From an uncultured Actinomycetota bacterium (GTDB taxonomy: Bacteria; Actinomycetota; Actinomycetes; JAHEKZ01), in assembly GCA_963718235.1 (NCBI GenBank), contig CAVQYR010000001.1:1184001-1248000 (forward strand): 64,000 nt of DNA, read 5' to 3'. Below, piece by piece: positions 1 through 18,617 of the stretch. Position numbers and translations under genes: made by a program. Under the pieces are notes generated by a model, which saw only the letters and a program-made list of their open reading frames with translations, was not told the origin of the DNA and ran no database searches. Within the stretch, counting starts at the first letter, position 1, and each line of letters begins with the position of its first letter.

Positions 1-362
1 CCCGGCCGGTAGTACTCCCACGGCTCCTGGGCGCCTTGCGCGAGGATCTCGTGAACCCGCTGGTGGAGTCTGAGGAGTCGCCCTTCAGTGGTCACCGCGA
101 GGAATATGGCGCCCTCCTCCCCTGGGAAAGTGCCCAGGGTATGCAGGTCAAGGCGGATGGGCGCTTCCACGAGGACTGAGCGCAGGGCATCGCGGCTCAC
201 GGCCGCGAGCGACTCCGCGATGCCTAGGGTGACGTGGGGTCGGTGCCTGCCGTGTGTCTGGCCAGCCAGGCTGGGGACACCGGCAGCGTCGATGCGAGCC
301 CACAGCCGACGGACGTCGCGTTCCGCGGCCTCGTCGAGGAACATCTCAAGTGCCTGCGCCAT
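1..362 (-). CDS. 2'-5' RNA ligase family / 2H phosphoesterase (runs off the left edge of the window)
   Basis: Not in the ORF track. Manual translation from ATG at 362 gives MAQALEMFLDEAAERDVRRLWARIDAAGVPSLAGQTHGRHRPHVTLG, with the PHVTL (HxT) 2H motif. Confidence 0.75.
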   Translation of the reverse strand, partial: MAQALEMFLDEAAERDVRRLWARIDAAGVPSLAGQTHGRHRPHVTLGIAESLAAVSRDALRSVLVEAPIRLDLHTLGTFPGEEGAIFLAVTTEGRLLRLHQRVHEILAQGAQEPWEYYRP

Positions 363-386
363 GCCTCCCCCTCACCCGAGTGATAC

Positions 387-425
387 TGCCGGATCGACAC
401 CCAGCGAGACGATCGCGAACGGCAC
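387..425 (-). repeat. Cassette-boundary repeat copy R1 (39 bp)
   Basis: Reverse complement GTGCCGTTC-GCGATCGTCTCGCTGGGTGTC-GATCCGGCA; intergenic. Confidence 0.85.
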
Positions 426-461
426 ATCGCGGGCGGTCGATTGCGATCACCTGACTGACGG

Positions 462-998
462 CTACTGCCCGGTGACACCGTCGATGGACTCGCGGAGCAG
501 ATCAGCGTGGCCGTTGTGGCGCGCGTGCTCCTCGATGAGATGGCACAGGATCCATCGCAGCGAAACGCGCTGGCCATCCTCCTGCTCCTCGGAGAGGGCG
601 GGCAGGCCATCAGGTCCCGCCAAGGCATCTGCCACCACCCCGTCCGACACCGCGACAGATTCCTCGAACCAGGCGAAGAGCTGCTCTGGCTCAGCCCCGG
701 CCGCCGTGGCGAAGGACCAGCTGGGGTCCTCAGGGTCCATCTCCGCCAACCATGACGGTCGCGCGACCCCGCCCGCAAACGTCAGGTTGAGCCAGCCCGC
801 CTCCACCACCGAAAGGTGCTTCAGCAGGCCACCCAGAGTCATCGTGGTTGGTGCCAGCGGAGTCGAGAGTTGGATCTTGGTGAGGCCTGAGCACTTCCAA
901 CGCAACGTGTCGCGCTGGTAGTTGAGGAATCCCAACAGCGTGGCGGCCTCATCTTGTGCGACTGGAGGATCTACACGGTCATCAGCACCGAACATCAT
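462..998 (-). CDS. DinB/DUF664 family protein (putative mycothiol transferase)
   Basis: Motifs EAATLLGFLNYQRDTLRWKC, TLGGLLKHL and EEHARHNGHADLLRESIDG. Confidence 0.9.
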   Translation of the reverse strand: MMFGADDRVDPPVAQDEAATLLGFLNYQRDTLRWKCSGLTKIQLSTPLAPTTMTLGGLLKHLSVVEAGWLNLTFAGGVARPSWLAEMDPEDPSWSFATAAGAEPEQLFAWFEESVAVSDGVVADALAGPDGLPALSEEQEDGQRVSLRWILCHLIEEHARHNGHADLLRESIDGVTGQ

Positions 999-1056
999 CG
1001 CGCGACCGTAGCAACGCCTTCGACGTTTGGCGAGGCACCGAGGAGGCGATCGCGAA

Positions 1057-1094
1057 GACCGGTTGGCTCGTCAGAAGACGATGCAGATCGGCAC
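1057..1094 (-). repeat. Cassette-boundary repeat copy R2 (38 bp, degenerate)
   Basis: Reverse complement GTGCCGATCTGCATCG...CAACCGGTC followed by TTCGCGATCGCC. Shares agacgat-N3-gaNcggcac with R1. Confidence 0.65.
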
Positions 1095-1122
1095 GTCGGA
1101 GCGGTTCTGGCATCCTGCCGTG

Positions 1123-1599
1123 ATGACCGTGGACGCTGTGACATGGCGCAACACCCGACCGAAGAAGCGCGTAGGCGCTGGTGTGCTCGTCCGTGACGAG
1201 AAGGGTCGAGTGCTGCTGGTCGAGCCGACCTACAAGGAGTCCTGGGAGATCCCTGGCGGGTCGGTGGAAGCCGACGAGTCACCGCGGACTACCTGCGCAC
1301 GCGAGGTCGAGGAAGAACTCGGACTCAGGCGCGGCGTCGGACGGCTGTTGTGCATGGAATGGCAAGGGCCGGCCCCCGATCGCAGCGAGTCCCTGATGTT
1401 CATCTACGACGGCGGCGTGGTCTCAGACCCCTCTGCCATCCGTCTCCCATCCGACGAACTGGCTTCGTTCAGGTTCGTCGACCCGGGCGAGTTGGACGCC
1501 TTGATGGTGGAGCGACTTGCGCGTCGGATTCGTGCCGCTCTCAGGGCGCTCGCCGATGACACTGTGGCTGAACTGGAAGACGGGGCACCCGGCGAGTAG
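1123..1599 (+). CDS. NUDIX hydrolase
   Basis: Nudix box GGSVEADESPRTTCAREVEEELGL. ATG 1123 lies 6 nt after a CATCCT -10-like hexamer. Confidence 0.9.
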   Translation: MTVDAVTWRNTRPKKRVGAGVLVRDEKGRVLLVEPTYKESWEIPGGSVEADESPRTTCAREVEEELGLRRGVGRLLCMEWQGPAPDRSESLMFIYDGGVVSDPSAIRLPSDELASFRFVDPGELDALMVERLARRIRAALRALADDTVAELEDGAPGE

Positions 1600-1632
1600 A
1601 AGGTTCGTTCGCGCGACGTAGGCGAGAGCGAA

Positions 1633-1671
1633 TGCCGGATCTTGTTGCACGAATGCGAACGAGAACGGCAC
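1633..1671 (-). repeat. Cassette-boundary repeat copy R3 (39 bp)
   Basis: Reverse complement GTGCCGTTCTCGTTCGCATTCGTGCAACAAGATCCGGCA; 37/39 identical to R5. Confidence 0.9.
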
Positions 1672-1686
1672 TTCGGCGCGGCTGGC

Positions 1687-2295
1687 CTACGGCTTGGTCC
1701 ACTCCAACGAGTAGCGGTAGTACGCACGACGGCGCAGCCTGGCACCTGGGAGCGGGAGCCGGGCCTGGTCGCGAATGTCTGTCAGCGTTTCTGATGGCTC
1801 GACGGTTGGCACGTCGTCGGGCCACTGCTCGTGGCGCAGCGCTCCGACAACGCGAGCCCGGGGTATCGAGGCCACGGCGAACGCGAAGTCCGCCTTCGAC
1901 GCGATCCGCGTGAGACCGAGGACGTAGAGCCGGCCACCGGGGCGAAGCAGTCGCACGCATCGACGAAGTGCGGCGCTGGTGTCCATGTGGTGGAGGGTCG
2001 CAACGACAGCGACGAAGCCGAAGGACGACTCGTCGAGGCTGGCCTCGTCGAACGTGCACTCGACGAGGTTCACGTTGGTCAGGTTAGCGCAGCGTCGCCG
2101 GGCCCGCTCAGCTGCTTGCGGGTCCGGCTCGATCCCGACGACGTGCCGTCCTGTGCGAGCCATGCGCGACAACAGCAGTCCATCGCCGCACCCGATGTCC
2201 AGCACATCCCCGACCGTCTCGTCGCACCGACGAAGGATCTCTACGTGGAAGGCCGTGTTGTGGTTCCAGTACGCATCAGGCGACTCGGGAACCAC
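1687..2295 (-). CDS. Class I SAM-dependent methyltransferase
   Basis: Motif I VLDIGCGDG, plus ATLHHM and LLRPGGRL. Confidence 0.9.
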   Translation of the reverse strand: MVPESPDAYWNHNTAFHVEILRRCDETVGDVLDIGCGDGLLLSRMARTGRHVVGIEPDPQAAERARRRCANLTNVNLVECTFDEASLDESSFGFVAVVATLHHMDTSAALRRCVRLLRPGGRLYVLGLTRIASKADFAFAVASIPRARVVGALRHEQWPDDVPTVEPSETLTDIRDQARLPLPGARLRRRAYYRYSLEWTKP

Positions 2296-2306
2296 CCGAG
2301 CGATAC

Positions 2307-2435
2307 TGCCGGGTCTCGCGCCTTGGGTTCAAGGAAGTGACGCAACACCCTGAGTTGTAGGGGTGTTGGATTGATGGGTCGTCCGAAGTTTCCGAAGCAG
2401 TTCGAGCGGTCGTTCTGGGCGAGCGAGAACGGCAC
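2307..2435 (-). repeat. Cassette-boundary repeat copy R4, arms separated by ~90 bp of extra sequence
   Basis: Arm tgccgggtc at 2307-2315 (2293-2315 is 21/23 identical to 373-395) and arm gaacggcac at 2427-2435. Confidence 0.7.
2324..2410 (+). mobile_element. Possible IS30-family left-end remnant
   Basis: GGGTTCAAGGAAGTGACGCAACACCC...GGGTGTTG hairpin, then ATG GGT CGT CCG (MGRPKFPKQFER). Resembles actinobacterial IS30 ends from memory; no transposase body follows. Confidence 0.4.
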
Positions 2436-2511
2436 ATCCGTGCCGTGAATCGGTTGGGTAGGGCTGCCCGTAGGCCCGTTGGGCCGTCGGTCACCACAGG
2501 GTGAGTGAGGA

Positions 2512-2940
2512 TCAAGTGTTGTTCACGATGCGTTGCCCGAGCGAGCAGTCGGAGGACACTCCGCCGTAGTCGAGACAGACGCGAGGGCGGACATCCAGGA
2601 TCTTGCGATGACGGCGGTAGATGTTGTAGTAGGAGACGTCGCCGTGGTCGCCACCCGCGCAGCCCTCGCCGTTGTTGAGCCACTCCGTCGAACCGTGGGA
2701 GCCATTGGCGAAGTCGATCACGAAGTTGCCCTTGACTCCCTTTCCGTCACACGACAGGTCGACCACGTCGACCTTCACTTGGAACTTCGAAGCGCCGTCG
2801 AAACCGACGGACCCCGACATCGTTCCATGACCGTTGCCGGTTTGGATCATGAAGTCTTGCCAGATGCCAGCCTGGGCTGTTGAGGGAGCGAGAAGACCGC
2901 CGACAAGCCCAACCGCGATCACATACCTTCGCAACCTCAT
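2512..2940 (-). CDS. Hypothetical secreted protein (142 aa, 4 Cys)
   Basis: Signal peptide MRLRRYVIAVGLVGGLLAPSTAQA; the mature part looks beta-rich. Confidence 0.75.
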   Translation of the reverse strand: MRLRRYVIAVGLVGGLLAPSTAQAGIWQDFMIQTGNGHGTMSGSVGFDGASKFQVKVDVVDLSCDGKGVKGNFVIDFANGSHGSTEWLNNGEGCAGGDHGDVSYYNIYRRHRKILDVRPRVCLDYGGVSSDCSLGQRIVNNT

Positions 2941-3029
2941 CTGGACACCACCGCCAAGAGGACCGGTACCGTGCGTCCAATCGTAGTCCGACGCCTCGCC
3001 GAATGTCGGCGATCTCATCCCAGGCCACC

Positions 3030-3180
3030 CACCGCCGCGGAGCGGTGGGCGGCTGACCTCGGCATCCCCGCCTACGCCATCGACGAGCAGACGGCCATCA
3101 AGGTCGTCGACGGCTCCGTCGAGGTGATCTCCGAGGGGCAGTGGACACCGTTCGGGGTCACGGCCGCCGAGCAGTCGTGA
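3030..3180 (+). pseudogene. C-terminal fragment of a peptidase E (S51)-like / type 1 glutamine amidotransferase-like protein
   Basis: AAERWAADLGIPAYAIDEQTAIKVVDGSVEVISEGQW resembles the C-terminus of actinobacterial peptidase E; the N-terminal part is absent. Confidence 0.6.
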
Positions 3181-3273
3181 AGGCGCGCCGTGGCACAAGA
3201 CCCGGCGGCAAGCGGGATCCTCACTCCGGACGTCGCTGTACAGGTCGTCGCATCAGTCCGAGCCCAAGCGGAC

Positions 3274-3306
3274 GTGCCGATCGGCTCGCCCCGCGTGGCG
3301 TCGGCA
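3274..3306 (+). repeat. Possible shortened cassette-boundary repeat
   Basis: GTGCCGATCGGCTCG...TCGGCA, 33 bp, upstream of the second DinB gene. Confidence 0.4.
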
Positions 3307-3347
3307 AGCTCGTTGCCCCGCGACATTCAGCCTCCTACCCTGACCGG

Positions 3348-3944
3348 GTGACGGAAGCGGACCTGAAGTCTGTCCTCGTCGGTCGTCTCGACCGGCTCAA
3401 CCAGGCTGTCCAGCACAAGCTCGAGGGTCTGTCGGAGTACGACTTGCGCCGACCGATGACCCCGACCGCGACCAACCTGCTCGGCGTCACGATGCATCTT
3501 GCCAGCCTGCAGTCGGAGTACTTCGGCAAGACCTTCGGCAACCCCTTCCCGCGAGAAGACGAGTTGTACTTCCTCACCGACGAGGACGCCGACCCGCAGG
3601 ACGACCTCTGGGTTCGCCCGGAGGCGACGTCGGAGTGGGTGGTCGGGCTCTATCGCGCCACCTGGGATCACGCCATGGAGACATTCGCGACGCTGGACCT
3701 GGACTCGCCGGGTCAGATTCCGACGAGTCCCTACGCGGAGGTCACACTCGGCGAGATGCTGGTGCACATGGTCGACGAGACCGCTCGCCACGTGGGACAC
3801 ATGGACATCGTGCGTGAGTTGATCGATGGTGCTGTCGGCAGGCACGCCGGCGACGGGAACATCATCGACGGCTATGACTGGGCTGCGTACCGGAGACGCG
3901 TGGAGGCCGGAGCCCGGGAGGCCGAGGAACGCGCCGAGTCCTGA
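3348..3944 (+). CDS. DinB/DUF664 family protein
   Basis: LEGLSEYDLRRPMTPTATNLLG and ETARHVGHMDIVRELIDG. GTG start 6 nt after TACCCT. Confidence 0.9.
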   Translation: MTEADLKSVLVGRLDRLNQAVQHKLEGLSEYDLRRPMTPTATNLLGVTMHLASLQSEYFGKTFGNPFPREDELYFLTDEDADPQDDLWVRPEATSEWVVGLYRATWDHAMETFATLDLDSPGQIPTSPYAEVTLGEMLVHMVDETARHVGHMDIVRELIDGAVGRHAGDGNIIDGYDWAAYRRRVEAGAREAEERAES

Positions 3945-3988
3945 GTTCAGTGCGCCACTCGGCCTGAAGCATCACCGACCGATCCGAA

Positions 3989-4027
3989 GTGCCGTTCTCG
4001 TTCGCTTCCGTGCAACAAGATCCGGCA
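3989..4027 (+). repeat. Cassette-boundary repeat copy R5 (39 bp)
   Basis: GTGCCGTTCTCGTTCGCTTCCGTGCAACAAGATCCGGCA followed by ACGCGCTCGCC. Confidence 0.9.
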
Positions 4028-4059
4028 ACGCGCTCGCCTGCGAAGGGCATGATGCAGGC

Positions 4060-4959
4060 GTGAAGATGCACGAGGGCGAACTCGACGTCAATGCTGAGTT
4101 GGTTCGACGGTTGGTTGCGGACCAGTTCCCGCAGTGGTCGGATCTGCCGATCGTTCACGTCGCACCTGCGGGCTCTGTGAATGTCATCTTTCGGGTGGGC
4201 GATTCATTGGCCGCCAGGTTTCCACTCCAAGCGGGCGACCCGGAAGAAGTCCGAGATTGGCTGATGCAAGAGGCTCGGGCAGCGTCTGAGTTCGCGGCCG
4301 TGTCGCCCGTTCGGTCGCCGAGGCCCATGGCGCTGGGAGAGCCAGGGCATGGCTATCCGCTGTCGTGGACGGTCCAGGACTGGCTACCCGGGCGCGACGC
4401 CATCGCGGAAGATCCTGCAGTGTCCGCGGCCTTCGCGCTGGAACTCGCGGATCTGCTGGCCTGTCTGCGTGAGGCAGACACGGGAGGGCGGCGTTTCTCG
4501 GGTGGAGGGCGCGGGGGCCATCTACCAGACCACGACGAGTGGATGGACCTGTGCTTCGCCAAGAGTGTGGGACTCGTCGACGTGGAGACATTGCGGGGTC
4601 TCTGGGAGAGCCTGCGGGTCCTTCCTGAGGTTGACGAGGACGTCATGTGTCACGGCGATCTGACTCCGCAGAACGTGCTGGTCGATGCGGGCCACTTGGT
4701 GGGAGTCCTCGACACTGGCGGCTTCGATGCGGCGGATCCGGCGCTCGATCTGGTGTCGGTCTGGCACCTGCTCGATTACGAGCGCCGGGAACTGGTCCGG
4801 CAACACTTGAAGTGCGGCGACGTTCAGTGGCATCGCGGGATGGCGTGGGCTCTCCAGCAAGCGATGGGTCTCGTCTGGTATTACGCCGAGACGAACCCGA
4901 TCATGAGTCGGTGGGGCCTACGGACTCTGGATCGCCTCGTGGGCGCGTCCGCCGCCTAA
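4060..4959 (+). CDS. Aminoglycoside phosphotransferase (APH) family kinase
   Basis: Brenner motif HGDLTPQNVL, GVLDTG and DPALDL. Start is GTG 4060 or ATG 4066. Confidence 0.9.
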   Translation: MKMHEGELDVNAELVRRLVADQFPQWSDLPIVHVAPAGSVNVIFRVGDSLAARFPLQAGDPEEVRDWLMQEARAASEFAAVSPVRSPRPMALGEPGHGYPLSWTVQDWLPGRDAIAEDPAVSAAFALELADLLACLREADTGGRRFSGGGRGGHLPDHDEWMDLCFAKSVGLVDVETLRGLWESLRVLPEVDEDVMCHGDLTPQNVLVDAGHLVGVLDTGGFDAADPALDLVSVWHLLDYERRELVRQHLKCGDVQWHRGMAWALQQAMGLVWYYAETNPIMSRWGLRTLDRLVGASAA

Positions 4960-4997
4960 GTGCCGTTCTGGCTCGGTCACTTTCGCAGGATCCGGCA
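4960..4997 (+). repeat. Cassette-boundary repeat copy R6 (38 bp)
   Basis: GTGCCGTTCTGGCTCGGTCACTTTCGCAGGATCCGGCA begins immediately after the APH TAA stop. Confidence 0.9.
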
Positions 4998-5066
4998 TCC
5001 GGTGCTGCACCTTGGCGCCGCTTGGTGCGCTACCCGCCGACGCGCTCGCCGCGCTATCGTTCGAGA

Positions 5067-5681
5067 GTGTCAGCCACGATCATCGGCGTCCCCATGGAAC
5101 ACCTCATCCCGGCTGGGATACTCGGCCCGGATCCCGTGACCGTGAACGTGCGAGCCTTCTTCGTGCCCCACGAAACCGGTCTTACGCTCGTGGACACCGG
5201 GCTGGACCCCGGTGGGGAGGCCCTCGATCTGGCATTGGCAGACGCCGGAGCGTTATGGACGGATGTCTCGGATGTCGTGATCACCCACGCCCATCCCGAT
5301 CACGTCGGGGCCCTCGACCATGTGCGCGTGGCAGCGCCCCAAGCCCGGATTCACTCCAACCCTGCCGAGGGGATGGCTGGGACGCTGCCCCTGTGGGACG
5401 GGGACACCGTGAACAGCCTGCGGGCGATAGCGACTCCGGGGCATACGGCAGGGCACCTGAGCTTGATCGATGAGAGCCAAGCGACGCTGCTGGTTGGGGA
5501 CTGTCTAGGCGTGGTCGACGGGCAGCTCGTGCGGGCCCCTGCGCAGTTCACCGCAGACGGCGAGCAGGCCGAGGCGTCACTCCATCGCCTGCTCAGCATG
5601 CGCGGGTCTCGAATGCTGTTCGCCCACGGCGAGGAGCTCTCTGAACCGTGGGCCGACCTTGAGGTCCTCCTCCCAGACTGA
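5067..5681 (+). CDS. MBL-fold metallo-hydrolase
   Basis: THAHPDHVG, TPGHTAGH, VGD and AHG motifs. GTG start 6 nt after TATCGT. Confidence 0.9.
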   Translation: MSATIIGVPMEHLIPAGILGPDPVTVNVRAFFVPHETGLTLVDTGLDPGGEALDLALADAGALWTDVSDVVITHAHPDHVGALDHVRVAAPQARIHSNPAEGMAGTLPLWDGDTVNSLRAIATPGHTAGHLSLIDESQATLLVGDCLGVVDGQLVRAPAQFTADGEQAEASLHRLLSMRGSRMLFAHGEELSEPWADLEVLLPD

Positions 5682-5718
5682 TCAAATCGCGCTCCACGGC
5701 TGGGCACGATTCGGCGGA

Positions 5719-5756
5719 GTGCCGTACTCACGCGCTTCGGTGAGAACGAACCGGCG
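5719..5756 (+). repeat. Cassette-boundary repeat copy R7 (38 bp)
   Basis: GTGCCGTACTCACGCG...GAACCGGCG followed by TCCGCGCTCG. Confidence 0.8.
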
Positions 5757-5892
5757 TCCGCGCTCGTCGGCTTGTGTGACCCCTGCCGGCACCCGCCGGC
5801 CACTGCTAGGGGTCAAACTGATGAATCTGTCCGCGCGCTCCGGCCGAGCGTGACCGCTGGGCGGATCTGTCACACGGGACCGGGAGGCCATC

Positions 5893-6303
5893 GTGGTAGC
5901 CGACGAGAATGTTGCAGCTGTGCGGGACTTCATCGAGCGGGCGTGGAACGGCGGTGACGAGTCGGTCTTCGAGGAGCACCTTTCTGTGGATTTCCCGCTT
6001 CCGGGAGGCCGAGACGGGTTCAAGCGAATGATCTTCAAGTACCGGCAGGCGTTCGCGGACTTCCACATGGAGGTGCACGACATGTTCGGTGCGGAGGACA
6101 AAGTCGTGACCGTGCTGACGATGCGCGGAACACATGTGGGCGAGTTCCTCGGCGTGGCTCCGACTGGCCGGAGCATGTCGATCTCCGGCATAGCCGTGGA
6201 CATCATGCGCGACGGCCAACGTGTCGGTGGTGGCGCGCAACTAGATCACCTCGGGTTACTCCAACAGCTCGGAGCAGTCAGCGGGGCGTGCTCGATGTTC
6301 TGA
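5893..6303 (+). CDS. SnoaL-like ester cyclase
   Basis: AFADFHMEVHDMFGAEDKVVTVLTMRGTHVGEFLGVAPTGR; GGAGG RBS upstream. Confidence 0.9.
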   Translation: MVADENVAAVRDFIERAWNGGDESVFEEHLSVDFPLPGGRDGFKRMIFKYRQAFADFHMEVHDMFGAEDKVVTVLTMRGTHVGEFLGVAPTGRSMSISGIAVDIMRDGQRVGGGAQLDHLGLLQQLGAVSGACSMF

Positions 6304-6433
6304 CACAGTTCATAGCCGTGCCGTGTGACGGCAGCCGTGAACAGCGCAAGCCGAGTTCGCTCGAACCCGTCACGGCGACCACTGTTCGAGGCCATCTGCG
6401 ACCGGACAACCGACGTCACATGACCGCGCAGAT

Positions 6434-6472
6434 GTGCTGTTATCCAGCGCGTCATGAAGTGCTGATCCGGCA
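6434..6472 (+). repeat. Cassette-boundary repeat copy R8 (39 bp)
   Basis: GTGCTGTTATCCAGCG...GATCCGGCA followed by TTCGCGCTCG. Confidence 0.8.
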
Positions 6473-6535
6473 TTCGCGCTCGTCTCGCCGTGTAACCAGT
6501 TGGCCGGTTGACCGCTGGCCGATGTACTTGACCTC

Positions 6536-7372
6536 ATGCCGTGCAACGTCCTTGTTACCGGCCAGCGTGGACTGATCGGCCTGTACGTCGTAGCGGAGTT
6601 GGAACGTCAGGGGCACATTCCTGTGGGCTTTGATCTCCAGGACGGCCAGGACGTGCGCGACCGCACTGCGTTAGCGGCTTCGCTGTCAGGCTGCGACGCC
6701 GTGATCCACCTTGCCGCCGCTGATGACCCGCTACCGGCTGAGGTGATCGTGGACAGCATCGTGGTCGGAACCATGAACCTTCTGGATCTTGCGGTGGCCC
6801 AGGGGTGCCATCGGGTGGTCATTGCCTCGAGCGTGGACGCACTCGGGATCTTCATGAGCAAGGCACCTCCGGACTATCTGCCGATCGACGATGCGCATCC
6901 CGCCCGTCCGGGAACCCCATACGGGGCCGCAAAGCGGGCCGCCGAACTTCTGGCGGAACGGGTCGCCGCTTCCACTGACCTAGAGGTGATCTGCCTCCGA
7001 CCGCCCGGCGTCTGTGACGACGCAACGATGGCCAAGATTCGCGCCAATCGCGTCGAGCGTGCCTCCTATGAATGGGAACCGATCTGGGAGTACAGCGCCT
7101 GGATCCATGTCGAGGATCTCGCCCGCGCCCTTGTGGCTGCCTGCTTCTGCCCGCGCTCTCCCGGCTCGTTCGCCTGCGTGCTGGTGGCAGCCTCGGATGT
7201 CAACTCCGATGAGCACTCGGGTCGTGATCTCGCTGCCGTCGTCCATCCCACGGTGCCGTGGCGAGGAGGAGCCGAGTACCACACCGATCCCCGACGATCG
7301 CTCATCGACTCGACGAAGGCCGTCGAGATGCTGGGGTGGGCTTCGAGGATCCTGTGGACCGACCGAACCTAG
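6536..7372 (+). CDS. NAD-dependent epimerase/dehydratase (extended SDR)
   Basis: VLVTGQRGLIG Rossmann motif, VIHLAA, and YGAAK (YxxxK). Confidence 0.9.
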   Translation: MPCNVLVTGQRGLIGLYVVAELERQGHIPVGFDLQDGQDVRDRTALAASLSGCDAVIHLAAADDPLPAEVIVDSIVVGTMNLLDLAVAQGCHRVVIASSVDALGIFMSKAPPDYLPIDDAHPARPGTPYGAAKRAAELLAERVAASTDLEVICLRPPGVCDDATMAKIRANRVERASYEWEPIWEYSAWIHVEDLARALVAACFCPRSPGSFACVLVAASDVNSDEHSGRDLAAVVHPTVPWRGGAEYHTDPRRSLIDSTKAVEMLGWASRILWTDRT

Positions 7373-7409
7373 GTGCCGATATGCAGCGCTGAGGTCGATT
7401 CCTGCGGCG
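7373..7409 (+). repeat. Cassette-boundary repeat copy R9 (degenerate right arm)
   Basis: GTGCCGATATGCAGCG starts directly after the TAG stop and ends ...GCGGCG, followed by CTCG. Confidence 0.55.
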
Positions 7410-7632
7410 CTCGTCTGGGCTCGCTTGGTCACCCGGGGCGGACAGCGACGGGCACTGCGTTGAGCGACGACGAAGGCGGTACTGCGAGCGTGGTGAGTGA
7501 CCTTCGGGCTCTCCTAGTGACCGTTGGCTATTCCACGCTCCCGTTCAGCGATGAAGCCTCTGACGTGGAATGTGATGCCGCTGATTCCGCCCGGCACGTG
7601 GCGTCGATCGGCGTTTGCGCTGGTCAGGGATC

Positions 7633-7706
7633 TGGAGCGGGTGACCGGGATCGAACCGGCATGGCCAGCTTGGAAGGCTGGGGCTCTACCATTGAGCTAC
7701 ACCCGC
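7633..7706 (-). tRNA. tRNA-Gly (TCC)
   Basis: Reverse complement GCGGGTGTAGCTCAATGGTAGAGC...TTCCAA...GGTTCGATCCCGGTCACCCGCTCCA. Confidence 0.95.
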
Positions 7707-7767
7707 GTGAGCGGACCCTCGCCTTGGCGGTGGCCCGACGGCGTCCTCTAGACTACGGGACCAGCCG

Positions 7768-7840
7768 CGGGGCGTAGCGTAGTGGCTAGCGCGCCTGCTT
7801 TGGGGGCAGGAGATCGGGAGTTCGAGTCTCCCCGCCCCGA
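7768..7840 (+). tRNA. tRNA-Pro (TGG)
   Basis: CGGGGCGTAGCG...CCTGC-TTTGGGG-GCAGG...GTTCGAGTC; usual position before tig. Confidence 0.95.
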
Positions 7841-7916
7841 CTGCCTGCTGCACCACCAGTCAACGCACCACCACCGGTCGCTGGCGCATGCCGCCACGAC
7901 GAACGAGGAGAGAGTC

Positions 7917-9263
7917 GTGAAGAGCAGCGTCGAGAGCCTCGGGCCCACGCGTGTGAAGCTGACCGTCGAGGTGCCCTTCGACGAGCTCAAGCCGACCCTT
8001 GACCAGGCCTACCGTCGGATCGGCTCCCAGGTCACGATCCCGGGCTTCCGCAAGGGCAAGGTGCCGGCGCGGATCATCGACCAGCGGGTCGGCCGCGGCG
8101 CGGTGCTGGAGGAGGCGGTCAACGAGGCGCTGCCCAAGGCCTACAGCCAGGCCGTCGAGGAGAACTCGGTCAAGGTCATCGGCCAGCCGCAGGTCGACGT
8201 GACGAGCTTCGAGGACGGCGCCGACCTCACTTTCACCGCGGAAGTCGACGTCCGCCCCGACATCGAGCTGCCCGCCTTCGACACCCTGCACGTCACCGTG
8301 GCCGACGCCGTGGTCTCCGAGTCCGACATCGACGAGCAGATCGAGACGCTGCGCGCCCGGTTCGCCACGCTCAAGCCCGTCGAGCGGGCCGCCGCCAATG
8401 GTGACTTCGTCCAGATCGACCTGGCCAGCACCCACGACGACGAGCCGGTCGAGACGCTGTCGGCCACCGGCATGTCCTACGAGGTCGGCTCCGGGACGCT
8501 GCTGGACAACCTCGACGACGCACTGCTCGGCCTGTCAGCCGGAGAGAGTGGGGCCTTCACGACCACACCAGGTGTAGGCGACCTGGAGGGCGAGGCGGTG
8601 GATGTCACCGTCACCGTCACCGCCGTCCGCGAGCGCGAGCTGCCCGAGGTCGACGACGACTTCGCGTCCACCGTCAGCGAGTTCGACACCCTCGACGAGC
8701 TGCGGGACGCCGTACGCGAGGAGCTGAACCCCCGCAAGCAGGTCGAGCAGCTGATGGCCGCCCGCGACGCTGTGCTCGAGGCGCTGGTCGCCTCTGTTGA
8801 GGTGCCCCTGCCCGAGCATGTGGCCGCGGAGGCCGTCGAGGCACACTTCGAGGACGGCCACGGAGACGAGGCGCACCGCGAGGAGTACGTCGGCCAGGTC
8901 CGCGAGGCCTTGAAGAAGGACCTCGTGCTCGACGCCGTCGCCGACGCCGACGACACCCAGGTGACCCAGGCCGAGCTCGCCGAGTACATCGTGCGCCAGG
9001 CGCCTCAGTACGGCATGACGCCCGACCAGTTCGCCCAGGCACTCACCCAGTCGGGTCAGGTCGGCTCGGTGTTCGCCGACGTCCGCCGGGCCAAGGCGCT
9101 GTCGGTCGTCCTCGAGGCCGCCACGGTCATGGACGAGTCCGGGAACCCGGTCGACCTCAGCCCGGCCGCCTCGTCCGAGGACGATTCGGCTGAGGCCGCT
9201 GACGCGGTCAGCTCCGAGGACTCCGAGGACGCCGGGGCGACTGCAGAGGCGCCGGCGTCCTGA
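7917..9263 (+). CDS. tig: Trigger factor
   Basis: IPGFRKGKVP motif; GAGGAG RBS. Confidence 0.97.
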   Translation: MKSSVESLGPTRVKLTVEVPFDELKPTLDQAYRRIGSQVTIPGFRKGKVPARIIDQRVGRGAVLEEAVNEALPKAYSQAVEENSVKVIGQPQVDVTSFEDGADLTFTAEVDVRPDIELPAFDTLHVTVADAVVSESDIDEQIETLRARFATLKPVERAAANGDFVQIDLASTHDDEPVETLSATGMSYEVGSGTLLDNLDDALLGLSAGESGAFTTTPGVGDLEGEAVDVTVTVTAVRERELPEVDDDFASTVSEFDTLDELRDAVREELNPRKQVEQLMAARDAVLEALVASVEVPLPEHVAAEAVEAHFEDGHGDEAHREEYVGQVREALKKDLVLDAVADADDTQVTQAELAEYIVRQAPQYGMTPDQFAQALTQSGQVGSVFADVRRAKALSVVLEAATVMDESGNPVDLSPAASSEDDSAEAADAVSSEDSEDAGATAEAPAS

Positions 9264-15781: not shown

Positions 15782-17137
15782 GTGATCCCCTCCGGCAGCT
15801 CATCCGCCTCCGACGTCGACGCACGAATGCGTGAGATCGAGGTCGCCCTGATAGCGCGTGCGCCGGAGTCCGACATCGAGCCCGGCACCGACCGGGTGGC
15901 CGCTGTGCTGGCAGCGATGGGTGACCCGCAGCGGTCCTTCCCGTCGATCCACGTCGCGGGCACCAACGGCAAGACCTCGACCACGCGGATGATCGACGCG
16001 CTGCTGCGGGCCCTCGACCTGCGTACCGGCGTGTACACCAGCCCCCACCTCGAGTCGATCACCGAGCGGATCACCGTGGACGGCGAACCCATCGGGGCCG
16101 AGGCGTTCGTCGCCACCTTCGACGAGGTCGCCCCCTACCTGCGGATCGTGGAGTCCGACGGCGGTCGCCCGCTCACCTACTTCGAGCTGGTCACCGTCAT
16201 GGCGTTCAGCGCCTTCGCTGACGCGCCGGTCTCCGTGGCCAGCGTGGAGGTGGGGCTCGGCGGTCGGTGGGACGCGACCAACGTGCTCGACGCGCCGGTG
16301 TCGGTCGTCATGCCGATCGGCCTGGACCACACGGAGTACCTGGGGGACACCCTCGAGCTCATCGCAGCCGAGAAGGCCGGCATCATCCGGGCCGGTCAGG
16401 TGACGGTACTGGCCCAGCAGGACCCGGTGGCCGAAGCCGTGGTCGTGCAGCGAGCCGCCCAGGTGGGGGCCACCCTCGCCCGGGAGGGCCTGAACTTCGG
16501 CGTCGTCGACCGGCAGATCGCGGTCGGCGGCCAGCTGCTCACCCTGCGCGGGATCACCGGTGAGTTCGACGAGGTCTTCCTGCCGTTGTACGGGGCGCAC
16601 CAGGCCTCCAACGCGGCCTGTGCGCTGGCCGCGGTCGAGGCGTTCGTGGGGGGTGGACAGGGACAGCTCGACCCCGAGGTGGTGCGGGCCGGCTTCGCCC
16701 AGGTCAGCTCTCCCGGTCGGCTGGAGATCGTCCGCCGCAGCCCCACGGTGATCATCGACGCCACCCACAACCCCGCAGGTGCCGCGACCCTGGTCGACTC
16801 GGTCGAGGAGGCCTTCGAGTTCACCCGGCTCGTCGGGGTGGTCGGAGTGCTCGGCGACAAGGACGCCGAGGGCATCCTCGGGGCGCTGGAGCCCCTGCTG
16901 TCGGAGGTCGTGGTGACCCGCTCCCGGTCCCCACGGGCGATCGACCCCGACGACCTGGGGGAGCTGGCCACGGAGGTCTTCGGTGCCGACCGGGTGGTGG
17001 TCGAGCCGCAGCTCGCCGACGCCGTCGAGCGGGCGATTGAGCTGGCCGAGGGTGACGACCCACAAGGTGGTGGCGGAGTCCTGATCACCGGGTCGGTGAC
17101 CCTGGCCGGCGAGGCCCGGTCGCTGCTGCGTCGCTGA
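15782..17137 (+). CDS. folC: Folylpolyglutamate synthase / dihydrofolate synthase
   Basis: HVAGTNGKTST, EVGLGGRWDATNV, IAAEKAGII. Confidence 0.96.
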   Translation: MIPSGSSSASDVDARMREIEVALIARAPESDIEPGTDRVAAVLAAMGDPQRSFPSIHVAGTNGKTSTTRMIDALLRALDLRTGVYTSPHLESITERITVDGEPIGAEAFVATFDEVAPYLRIVESDGGRPLTYFELVTVMAFSAFADAPVSVASVEVGLGGRWDATNVLDAPVSVVMPIGLDHTEYLGDTLELIAAEKAGIIRAGQVTVLAQQDPVAEAVVVQRAAQVGATLAREGLNFGVVDRQIAVGGQLLTLRGITGEFDEVFLPLYGAHQASNAACALAAVEAFVGGGQGQLDPEVVRAGFAQVSSPGRLEIVRRSPTVIIDATHNPAGAATLVDSVEEAFEFTRLVGVVGVLGDKDAEGILGALEPLLSEVVVTRSRSPRAIDPDDLGELATEVFGADRVVVEPQLADAVERAIELAEGDDPQGGGGVLITGSVTLAGEARSLLRR

Positions 17138-17219
17138 CCCGTTCACCCATGGGTCACCCAGTGGTGGCAGGCTGCCATGCATTGGTCCGCTTCCACGATG
17201 GTCAGCGAACGGAGTCGTC

Positions 17220-18617
17220 ATGCCGATCCACTACGTCGGACGCACCGAGCCCCAGCGTGACTCGGTGTCGGTCAACCCCCTGTTCGCCCAACCGGGTGAG
17301 ACCGCGGTTCCGCGCAACCGGATGCCAGACCACGAGATGCCCCCGGACACCGCGTACCAGATCGTGCACGACGAGGCGATGCTCGACGGGAACGCCCGGC
17401 TGAACCTGGCGACGTTCGTGAGCACCTGGATGGAGCCGCAGGCGGCGCAGCTGTACTCAGAGACGTACGACAAGAACATGATCGACAAGGACGAGTACCC
17501 GCAGACGGCGCAGATCGAGGAGCGCTGCGTACGAATGCTCGCCGACCTGTGGCACGCCCCCGGGGAGACTGTGGGCACCTCAGCGATCGGTTCGTCCGAG
17601 GCGTGCATGCTGGCCGGGCTCGCGTTCAAGCGCAGGTGGCGCAACCGTCGCCTCGCGGAGGGGAAGTCGGTCGACAAGCCGAACCTGATCATGAGCTCGG
17701 CCGTGCAGGTCGTCTGGGAGAAGTTCTGCAACTACTGGGACGTCGAGCCGGTCTACGTGCCCGTGACGCTCGACAACCCGGGGCTCACCCCGGAGACGTT
17801 GCTCCCGTACGTCAACGAGAACACGATCGGGGTCGTCGCGATCCTTGGTGTTACGTACACGGGGGCCTACGAGCCGGTCAAGGAGATCGCCGCAGCGCTC
17901 GACGACCTGCAGGCCCGGACCGGTCTCGACGTCCCGCTTCACGTCGACGGCGCCAGCGGCGCGATGATCGCGCCCTTCCTGCAGCCTGACCTGGAGTGGG
18001 ACTTCCGGCTCGAGCGGGTCCACTCGATCAACACGTCGGGGCACAAGTACGGGCTGGTCTACCCGGGGCTGGGCTGGGTCGTGTGGCGCAGCCGGCAGTA
18101 CCTGCCCGACGACCTCGTCTTCCACGTCTCCTACCTCGGTGGCGACATGCCGACCCTGGCGATCAACTTCTCCCGCCCGGGCGCCCAGGTGCTGCTGCAG
18201 TACTACAACTTCCTGCGGTTGGGGCGCGGCGGCTACTACCGGGTCCAGAAGGCCTGCCAGGACGTCGCCGTCCACATCTCCTCCGCGGTGGCGGCCATGG
18301 AGCCGTTCGAGCTGCTCACCGACGGGACCGACATCCCGGTCTTCGCCTGGCGGCTGAACGACGAGTACACGACCAAGTGGGACCTGTCGGACCTGTCCGA
18401 GCGGCTTCGTCACCACGGCTGGCAGGTGCCGTCCTACCCGATGCCGGCCGACATCGAGGACGTGACGGTGATGCGAGTGGTGGTCCGCAACGGCCTGTCG
18501 ATGGACCTCGCCCAGCTGTTCATCCACGACCTCCAGCGCTCGGTGGAGTACCTCGACGGGCTCAGCGGCCCACTGCCCAAGGAGATCGGCAAGACCGCGA
18601 GTGGGTTCCACCACTGA
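17220..18617 (+). CDS. gadB: Glutamate decarboxylase (PLP-dependent)
   Basis: LDGNARLNLATFV, KNMIDKDEYPQT, HVDGASG and SGHKYGL (PLP lysine). Confidence 0.95.
   Translation: MPIHYVGRTEPQRDSVSVNPLFAQPGETAVPRNRMPDHEMPPDTAYQIVHDEAMLDGNARLNLATFVSTWMEPQAAQLYSETYDKNMIDKDEYPQTAQIEERCVRMLADLWHAPGETVGTSAIGSSEACMLAGLAFKRRWRNRRLAEGKSVDKPNLIMSSAVQVVWEKFCNYWDVEPVYVPVTLDNPGLTPETLLPYVNENTIGVVAILGVTYTGAYEPVKEIAAALDDLQARTGLDVPLHVDGASGAMIAPFLQPDLEWDFRLERVHSINTSGHKYGLVYPGLGWVVWRSRQYLPDDLVFHVSYLGGDMPTLAINFSRPGAQVLLQYYNFLRLGRGGYYRVQKACQDVAVHISSAVAAMEPFELLTDGTDIPVFAWRLNDEYTTKWDLSDLSERLRHHGWQVPSYPMPADIEDVTVMRVVVRNGLSMDLAQLFIHDLQRSVEYLDGLSGPLPKEIGKTASGFHH

Follow-up and report, generated by a model that had tools for sequence, protein, structure and literature searches.

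The window analysed here is a 64,000-nucleotide stretch of the genome of an uncultured Actinomycetota bacterium (G000; 3.17 Mb, 70% G+C, two contigs), corresponding to positions 1184001-1248000 of contig C1 (C1:1184001-1248000). Small genes occupy both strands of window positions 1-7632; a tRNA-Gly(TCC) and a tRNA-Pro gene come next (Table 1), and a short recurring site built around the hexamer GTGCCG sets these small genes apart. Together, genes and sites would form the right-hand part of an array of ~13 mobile gene cassettes. Comparison with other sequences supports the view that the sites are the borders of mobile units, which comprise a single gene or sometimes two.

Over 51 sites aligned at the hexamer, the consensus reads ..ccgc.CCGAn / GTGCCG / wTCTcgaTCGCcT, followed in most copies by GAwCCGGCA and then tTCGCGCTCGcc. 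The functional core is the hexamer between the short dyad arms cCGAn and wTCk; 3' of the hexamer lie an optional body of ~33 nt (wTCTCGcTCGCC ... GAwCCGGCA) and then TTCGCGCTCGCC. The arm cCGAn belongs to the 3' end of the unrelated gene unit before it and mirrors wTCk across the hexamer in these 51 sites; at two sites, its GAn position is taken by a stop codon, giving TAA/GTGCCG at 4960 and TAG/GTGCCG at 7373, as a preliminary description of this DNA had noted. The same description had named ten places for a motif of 38-39 bp. The motif is present at all of them, in seven full copies, one with an insert of ~90 nt and two degenerate ones, and the observation stands; the conserved unit, however, is longer, with cCGAn on the left and TTCGCGCTCGCC on the right, and the weight of the 5' hexamer, the point of exchange, had been missed. 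Hexamer and arms also occur without the body, namely at C1:1181469, 1182005 and 1183793, three times in a neighbouring island described below, and at L060:8970. The sites lie upstream of most cassette genes.

These sites are restricted to a few accessory-gene loci. The strict pattern GTGCCGWTC-N18-24-GAWCCGGCA matches four times in the window, compared with none in 100 shuffles, and the same four matches are the only ones in the 3.17-Mb genome. A looser pattern, [GT][AG]NGTGCCGNT[CA], occurs 157 times genome-wide, 17 of these within C1:1176138-1191370. An nhmmer profile of eight copies yields 13 matches at E<0.02, all of which fall into C1:1179561-1191427, which includes the window part (locus A), or C1:527858-530123 (locus B). 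Likewise, a covariance model built from 13 copies (R1) finds 11 matches at 44.8-64 bits in the genome, in loci A and B only, the next best match scoring 26.7 bits; a third site, interrupted by an insertion sequence (IS), lies on contig C2. With filters off, seven window copies score 45.7-63.9 bits with R1; they were training rows of this model, so these scores follow from its construction. A model built solely from 33 sites of another family (R2) recovers the same seven copies at 32.1-57.3 bits and reads the 'split' copy at 2287-2438 as a single site with an insert. Its one further match in the window lies in the other 56 kb (E=0.088), where neither model finds a convincing copy, in line with the preliminary description.

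The array is carried by a tRNA island. A 49-bp repeat, which covers the 3' part of tRNA-Gly, occurs at C1:1170909-957, 1179820-868 and 1191629-677 (blastn self-comparison), and a 305-bp segment is likewise repeated (Table 1); the array therefore sits within an 11.8-kb island, in the order att (attachment) repeat, tyrosine integrase, 13 units, 260-bp arm and tRNA-Gly. The carrier as a whole thus has a tyrosine integrase and is bounded on both sides by direct repeats from the 3' part of the tRNA; this does not hold for the internal sites. The integrase (L001 ~16127-17407; PF00589 E=8.4e-13) lies just left of the window and contains one in-frame TAG. Between its stop and the terminal ('primary') site, 14 hexamer sites set off the 13 units, and the array extends beyond the window's left edge to C1:1181469 in the same island, with further short sites to C1:1176138. 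It had been described as lying beside tRNA-Gly, which is correct, and had been placed at 1-7632, which is too narrow. Up to window 2435, counted from the integrase end, the sites face leftwards, and between 3274 and 7373 they face rightwards; at the turning point between the two opposed sub-arrays, a putative secreted-protein gene stands head to head with a truncated peptidase-S51 gene. The 305-bp repeat begins precisely with the terminal-site hexamer and comprises the 260-bp island arm and a 45-nt 3' part of tRNA-Gly, while the DNA left of this hexamer is unrelated between the two tandem islands. The neighbouring (sister) island has the same arm and terminal site and no array; further leftwards it carries different genes, including one for a XerC-like recombinase. 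By analogy, the terminal sites of the two islands resemble attI with and without cassettes.

The array genes encode unrelated small enzymes. At locus A, these are two SnoaL-like proteins, a HAD hydrolase, an unassigned 95-aa open reading frame (ORF), an F420H2-dependent quinone reductase, a 2'-5' RNA ligase family member, two mycothiol-S-transferase (MST)/DinB proteins, a NUDIX hydrolase, a methyltransferase, an APH-family phosphotransferase, a metallo-beta-lactamase (MBL)-fold protein and an NAD-dependent epimerase. Locus B holds genes for a peptidase of family S51, a rifampin ADP-ribosyltransferase (Arr), a 154-aa uncharacterised protein, a HAD protein, a GNAT protein, a beta-lactamase-fold protein and an alcohol dehydrogenase.

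Table 1. Array genes, sites and island features of the window, and one further record of the IS110-family element. Positions refer to the window unless a record is named; R1 and R2 are the covariance models described in the text.
Feature	Position	Strand	Evidence and remarks
2'-5' RNA ligase superfamily cassette gene	3-362	-	PF13563 E=1.2e-15; 174-aa ORF continues to C1:1183838
Junction site, after MST/DinB gene	367-428 (hexamer 425-420)	-	R1 55.5, R2 57.3 bits; strict pattern
MST/DinB cassette gene	462-998	-	PF04978 E=1.1e-39
Junction site	1037-1097 (hexamer 1094-1089)	-	R1 50.7, R2 44.9 bits
NUDIX hydrolase cassette gene, reversed relative to flanking sites	1123-1599	+	PF00293 E=9e-21
Junction site	1613-1674 (hexamer 1671-1666)	-	R1 63, R2 55.5 bits
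SAM-dependent methyltransferase cassette gene	1687-2295	-	PF08241 E=1.2e-20
Junction site with ~90-nt insert between halves	2287-2438 (hexamer 2435-2430)	-	R2 39.6 bits; R1 5' half only, 15.6 bits
142-aa protein cassette gene, no Pfam family	2512-2940	-	ORF list; putative signal peptide read from translation
Peptidase-S51 cassette 3' fragment, ending GACGTGCCG	3032-3279 (hexamer 3274-3279)	+	Homology
Degenerate junction site	3271-3322	+	R1 12.7 bits, E=0.33; homology breakpoint
Second MST/DinB cassette gene	3348-3944	+	PF04978 E=2.5e-37
Junction site	3986-4046 (hexamer 3989-3994)	+	R1 63.9, R2 53.1 bits
APH-family phosphotransferase cassette gene, stop TAA abuts next hexamer	4060-4959	+	PF01636 E=1.3e-21
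Junction site	4957-5017 (hexamer 4960-4965)	+	R1 45.7, R2 32.1 bits
MBL-fold cassette gene	5067-5681	+	PF00753 E=8.3e-18
Junction site	5716-5776 (hexamer 5719-5724)	+	R1 53.9, R2 36.5 bits
SnoaL-like cassette gene	5893-6303	+	PF07366 E=5.4e-25
Junction site, variant hexamer GTGCTG	6431-6492 (hexamer 6434-6439)	+	R1 55.5, R2 44.3 bits
NAD-dependent epimerase/dehydratase cassette gene, stop TAG abuts next hexamer	6536-7372	+	PF01370 E=2.9e-25
305-bp repeated segment	7373-7677	+	99% identical to C1:1179564-1179868, blastn self-comparison
49-bp att repeat of tRNA-Gly islands	7629-7677	strand-less	blastn self-comparison
tRNA-Gly(TCC)	7633-7706	-	ARAGORN; Rfam tRNA 67.3 bits; integration target of array-carrying island
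IS110-family element, third assembled record	L061:5614-7027		

When array loci are compared with each other, shared sequence begins and ends at the hexamer. The peptidase-S51 unit of locus B, for instance, recurs in another genus (G002; 77.7% over 903 bp) and at a locus from a metagenome-assembled genome (MAG; L062; 93% over 896 bp). In every copy, the shared block runs from the hexamer of the upstream site to GTGCC(G), after which the sequences are unrelated, and what follows downstream in G002 and L062 is not a site at all. The truncated S51 gene of the window is 91% identical to the copies of locus B and L062 and 74% to that of G002, and these alignments stop 0-11 nt from the hexamer. Furthermore, a 524-bp unit common to G063 and G092 (95.6% identity) ends 0 and 5 nt from hexamers; its site bodies are near-identical, while the 3 nt upstream differ, so the body travels with the downstream gene. 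A two-gene unit present in two arrays of G092 (92% over 1058 bp) has its right border at GAAGTGCCG in both copies; on the left, one copy begins after a full body and the other immediately after the hexamer. A homolog of the APH gene also lies between two sites in G092, and the array of G002 as a whole lies as an insertion of ~22 kb between genes that are direct neighbours in G000. Considering every inter-locus block that reaches 200 bp and 72% identity (29 in total, flanking core-gene blocks included), 40 of the 116 block ends fall within 12 nt of a hexamer, where 2.6 would be expected at random (maximum 9 in 2000 trials).

The hexamer is also the repeated target of an insertion sequence. In L062, an IS110-family element (L062:6780 onwards) adjoins the S51 unit downstream, at GTGCC/. 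A copy 83% identical to it interrupts the site on contig C2 of G000 (L263:8600-9997, C2:~380600-381997), where it is the only copy in the genome; it is frameshifted and matches PF01548 (DEDD_Tnp_IS110, E=3.2e-21) and PF02371 (Transposase_20, E=1.1e-24). This site is broken at the same base (...GATGTGCC/TACCTGTT...GAGGGGAA/CCGTTCGCGGTCGC...), so that the junction GTGCC/TACCTGTT is common to both genomes; SnoaL and alcohol dehydrogenase genes follow the element. In G115, which has the third insertion of this kind, the ends of the element lie 9 nt from hexamers, and the end of a metagenome contig, in which the right end of the element is joined inside a terminal-site hexamer, suggests a fourth insertion in the hexamer. 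The element thus belongs to the IS110 family and inserts in a sequence-specific manner. This parallels the targeting of integron attC sites by insertion sequences, which is reportedly the habit of a group of DEDD-type elements, the IS1111-attC group.

To see how far the sites are spread, we turned to samples of genomes, and statements on their absence elsewhere accordingly mean that they were not found in those searched. In the window's family, whose order is represented by the same 20 genomes, four genomes have sites (11 in G000, four in G019, three in G002 and one in G001). Among 151 genomes of the class, 11 have a match; several copies per genome occur only in this family and in genus g49 of family f45, and the matches outside these two families are single copies in four genomes. 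Within this second family, six of seven genomes carry sites, corresponding to all six species of g49, with 1-15 copies each. In the phylum sample, two of 150 other genomes have a single weak match. The largest array that we examined, in G305, spans 17 kb with at least 17 co-oriented sites and ends 1.7 kb from a tmRNA gene. More generally, a tRNA or tmRNA gene lies 0.3-4.5 kb from the array in seven of ten array loci examined; none was found in the stretches read around locus B (20 kb), the G001 site or the second G063 array. A blastn search with one site against plasmid and phage collections gave no match.

Metagenomes contain the sites as well. A pattern scan returned at least 120 stretches, and among the 80 loci listed there are 23 model matches on 20 contigs, mostly short. 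In twenty sequencing runs, which come from 13 studies, 14-28% of the words sampled from window 1-7700 are present; the habitat labels of runs with a small share were left out of consideration. From four runs (four studies), contigs were placed on C1:1179001-1192000; among the 32 pieces listed, with 536 more in existence, ten from three runs (X3, X6 and X7) have an end within 5 nt of a hexamer, and nine of these ten continue into 19-2184 nt of unlike sequence. For instance, X3 record 13 matches up to 1094 and continues with 737 nt of unlike sequence, X6 record 21 has 589 nt of unlike sequence from 3989 on, and X7 record 32 has 2184 nt from 6442 on, while the match of X3 record 16 ends at 4965 and that of X7 record 31 begins at 4960. 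Some joints with short sides of 20-41 nt, such as 2466->12633 in L142 coordinates, and some uncovered stretches also appeared in this comparison; they do not count towards the evidence.

We consider it reasonably probable that cassettes are exchanged by a site-specific process at the hexamer. A cassette consists of the optional ~33-nt body with TTCGCGCTCGCC, one or occasionally two genes in either orientation, and a 3' end of the form cCGAn-GTGCCG. As adjacent cassettes share GTGCCG and DNA has been exchanged in it or close to it, each cassette is bounded by two hexamers, and a circularised cassette would carry one complete site, as integron cassettes do. The minimal site resembles a simple recombinase core, in which an asymmetric 6-bp overlap lies between inverted arms (CGAn / nTCG), and the reaction may be a conservative site-specific recombination. 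From this geometry, we infer an enzyme that is most likely of the tyrosine type and acts in trans, not being encoded at most arrays.

Several observations weigh against this reading. ORF clustering over nine array loci revealed no common recombinase, and the integrase family found at tRNA-Gly occurs at only three of them; as no recombinase is common to the arrays, action in trans is itself something that we infer. Apart from two Xer-like genes, G115 has no intact tyrosine recombinase, and G002 has one, far from its array. In G000, the integron integrase model TIGR02249 reaches at best 74.2 bits, with the Xer-like genes (cut-off 265), resolvases are represented by one fragment only, and the Y1 HUH transposase family PF01797 has no match in this genome, which is 95% complete. 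Moreover, the left limit of the cassette is not uniform, as the two left borders of the two-gene G092 unit, 35 nt and 2 nt from the hexamer, and the junctions without body show. Neither an excised circle nor an empty site was observed. Metagenome breakpoints lend support short of proof and are weaker evidence, because De Bruijn contigs tend to break at any repeat. On the side of detection, R1 and R2 are not fully independent, because the R2 sites were found with R1, and the R1 scores for 2383-2438, 7370-7423 and 3271-3322 (15.6, 14.0 and 12.7 bits) are at background level; the degenerate copies at 7373 and 3274 were accepted as sites because they contain GAnGTGCCGwT and coincide exactly with homology breakpoints.

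The six PF00589 matches of G000 are the two Xer-like genes, two island genes and two others, likewise of the island type: a split gene beside tRNA-Val and one whose 918-aa frame contains a TAG. The Xer-like genes are the only intact tyrosine recombinases common to every site-bearing genome checked (n=6). The preliminary description had proposed to look for a recombinase to the left of the window. A tyrosine integrase does lie there, but it is the island integrase, with its in-frame TAG, and its close relatives (70-86% identity in L015-L019, 46% in L020) have no site within 10 kb; no close orthologue of it was found in G001, G002, G115, G019 or G157. The same integrase family is present at the tRNA-Gly arrays of G063 and G092. 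As for the XerC-like recombinase of the sister island, its 85%-identical orthologues occur only in G092 and in G001, where the gene is split over two frames. Neither island recombinase co-occurs with the sites. No recombinase was found at either end of the G305 array, where a 575-aa ORF looks like a wrong-frame artefact, or among ten ORFs scanned on the listed metagenome contigs.

Other explanations have to be weighed as well. The cassette reading would be retained if the substrate were a folded single strand, as for attC or the attP of phage CTX, with a variable loop in the middle and exchange of one strand at the foot of the hairpin. The halves TGCCG...CGGCA are inverted with a 1-nt offset, such that 88% of cells pair over 49 sites, compared with 9-50% after sliding one side; imperfect hairpins with a 1-vs-2-nt asymmetry are predicted for the copies at 1633 and 3989 and for the long copy (z=-3.1, -0.96 and -2.75), the long copy tolerating its ~90-nt mid-site insert with the outer stem kept in single-stranded DNA; and one site shows the compensatory change GTGTCG...CCGACA. 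The stems of the 49 sites nevertheless give no covariation signal, since their one compensatory cell is a level reached by 57 of 500 shuffles, and the interior stability is small (mean z -0.7 over 36 sites, z>0 in eight). Several junctions without the second half are cassette borders all the same, and what is conserved is the sequence itself, not just a structure. We regard a folded substrate as unlikely. Conserved sequence without covariation would also suit an ordinary dispersed repeat (REP- or MITE-like, i.e. a repetitive extragenic palindrome or a miniature inverted-repeat element, or else protein-binding or regulatory) that has accumulated in flexible regions, the genes there being shuffled by RecA-dependent homologous recombination. 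No dedicated recombinase was found, and the position upstream of most cassette genes is that of an operator or 5' element. Unlike REPs, however, the copies are limited to a few loci, the breakpoints cluster at one edge of the repeat, even beside a non-site (G002, L062 and the island arm), and cCGAn is conserved at the 3' end of the preceding, unrelated cassette, so that we find this explanation rather improbable. A REP with its RAYT-type (REP-associated tyrosine transposase) Y1 enzyme is contradicted by copies in just two loci and one IS-interrupted site, and by the missing transposase; intrinsic terminators by one terminator-like site in 7.7 kb against 2.7 expected, with a T tract at no site; and an Rfam family by a scan of window 1-9000 (E<=10) that returned only the two tRNAs and chance-level matches.

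Alternatively, the arrays could be tandem series of tiny integrative elements that were laid down by tRNA-island integrases, with the sites as secondary or arm-type att sites. This would account for the proximity of most arrays to a tRNA or tmRNA gene, for the att-bounded island around the window array, beside two sister islands, and for the shared integrase family at the tRNA-Gly arrays of G063 and G092; moreover, units of 0.7-0.9 kb stand in tandem in the MAG stretch L016, and every one of them has a remnant of tRNA-Gly and a motif of loose similarity. The junctions in question, however, lack the integrase core, an anticodon-loop segment that is kept in L016 and in the 49-bp repeats, and the integrase itself is interrupted by TAG in both G000 and G063, its close relatives have no sites nearby, and five site genomes have no close orthologue. 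Locus B has neither a tRNA gene in the 20 kb read nor a PF00589 match nearby, and a search around four arrays other than the window's, including those of G002, G092b and G305, found no att repeats. We thus give this explanation very little credence. The comparisons proposed in the preliminary description as possible refutations all support the cassette reading: only accessory-gene loci hold the motif, which is not scattered over the genome, the same cassettes lie in other places in relatives, with breakpoints at the site, and the site matches neither attC features nor IS ends and is not dif-like. Of the cassette capture and shuffling system proposed there, the borders of mobile units are borne out by comparison, but a recombinase gene common to the arrays is not.

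Among known systems, the arrays are most readily compared with integrons. Clusters of attC sites lacking an integrase are known as CALIN (Cury et al., 2016; PMC4889954), and this survey of complete genomes reports no complete integrons in Actinobacteria (PMC4889954). As in integrons and CALIN, each unit has one gene and one site, arrays exist without a local integrase, and gene-plus-site units cross over at one fixed position on the edge of the site, as the hexamer-to-hexamer blocks show, so that the two ends of a cassette together make up its single site. Their cargo, too, is of the same kind, with small unrelated enzymes, resistance-type genes and a putative toxin-antitoxin-like pair, and a terminal site lies next to an integrase-bearing platform, with and without cassettes. 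Still, the arrays are not integrons: IntI was not found in the G000 genome, given the TIGR02249 scores above; the ends RYYYAAC/GTTRRRY are absent, their place being taken by GTGCCGwTC...GAwCCGGCA; the 38-39-nt site is conserved by sequence and not by structure; and the site body is located on the 5' side of its gene instead of the 3' side.

Similar comparisons apply to other systems. The pdif modules of Acinetobacter plasmids are gene modules between short sites, on which a recombinase of the host acts in trans; this resembles modules bounded by short sites in genomes whose only shared intact tyrosine recombinases are a Xer-like pair. Our sites, however, are in direct and not in alternating orientation, and the arrays are chromosomal. 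Furthermore, the candidate dif of G000, TTCGCCGATAA-TAGACA-TTATGTCATTT (C1:1739242, minus strand), located with what we take to be the dif consensus, shares at most GCCGAT(A) with some sites, which have no counterpart of the XerD arm. With tandem islands that integrate at tRNA genes, including tycheposon-like elements, the window array shares its 11.8-kb island, the 49-bp att repeats, the tyrosine integrase and two tandem sister islands; it differs in internal junctions without att core, and other arrays have no island integrase or att repeats. Lastly, REPs or bacterial interspersed mosaic elements (BIMEs) with RAYT transposases and the palindrome-associated elements of the IS200/IS605 type have in common with our sites a short imperfect intergenic palindrome with a conserved 5' motif, and a unit that ends in its own target sequence could in principle build arrays. 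Here, by contrast, the motif is not genome-wide, a Y1 HUH transposase is missing and the palindrome is at the left end only.

Full-text literature searches turned up no account of this site, nor of any cassette system other than integrons in Actinomycetota. We put forward only tentatively, as possible rather than probable, that the arrays represent an Actinomycetota cassette system of an origin independent of integrons. It would have a sequence-defined site (a GTGCCG overlap between short dyad arms, with an optional second half-site), movement of cassettes between arrays next to tRNA and tmRNA genes and between families, an off-array recombinase (the host Xer pair acting on a non-dif site, or an unrecognised class) and a dedicated IS110-type parasite corresponding to IS1111-attC. 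In textbooks, integrons are the means by which bacteria collect single genes and rearrange them. If Actinobacteria had another cassette system, unrelated to integrons, cassette architecture would have evolved more than once; such a system would also offer a way to follow the traffic of accessory genes among actinobacterial lineages of soils and sediments, and direct attention to an as yet undescribed pair of recombinase and site. The traveling genes include resistance-type ones, namely the APH, Arr and MBL-fold genes of these arrays. A direct test is feasible, since a short site defined by its sequence is easily searched for.

Some further observations concern individual genes and the islands. 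The S51 protein of locus B (L003:7997-8677, C1:527997-528677) has 226 aa, and among the best 80 of 577 candidate stretches (L062-L141), relatives 80-96% identical to it come from very diverse Actinomycetota hosts, a few records being labelled Chloroflexota or Symbiobacteriaceae; only in L062 among these 80 does a junction site lie beside the gene. From its family name, one would expect the S51 gene to be far less mobile, or less constrained, than it looks. In L016:15326-17150, a MAG stretch with an integrase 82% identical to that of the array island, tandem units of one or two genes follow the tRNA-Gly site, and each opens with a tRNA core remnant and a conserved ~66-nt repeat. This is a cassette-like accretion by a different route; the likeness of its motif to our site is loose and was not recovered by the model, and its likeness to the tRNA T-arm is unproven. 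The in-frame TAG of the island integrase (L001:16547-16549, C1:1180547-49) recurs in G063, a member of another family (L057 ~16369-16371, minus strand), at the same conserved Trp codon (...VRR*), where the G092 orthologue has Trp; it could be a pseudogene coincidence or a regulated read-through. The recombinase match in the 918-aa frame of G000, which is also interrupted by one TAG, lies at C1:1846992-1847462 (L265 ~2378-4975, minus strand); this makes it the second recombinase gene of the genome with an in-frame TAG.

Left of the array island, the tRNA-Gly locus accommodates at least two further tandem elements (C1:1167650-1179868), with an integrase-like fragment at C1:1167650-1167860 and, in one element, the XerC-like recombinase (L001:10616-11368; 85% identical to the G092 and G001 genes). 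A 1.2-kb stretch around this recombinase is 84% identical in G092, and a 305-bp arm with terminal site in G092 (L058:9056-9361) is 88-89% identical to window 7373-7677; this sequence similarity indicates that parts of the islands have been exchanged between families. Finally, the inverted sites at 1613-1674 and 3984-4039 are 91% identical over 57 nt, far closer than other pairs, as would be expected if one sub-array had recently been inverted or copied relative to the other at these sites.

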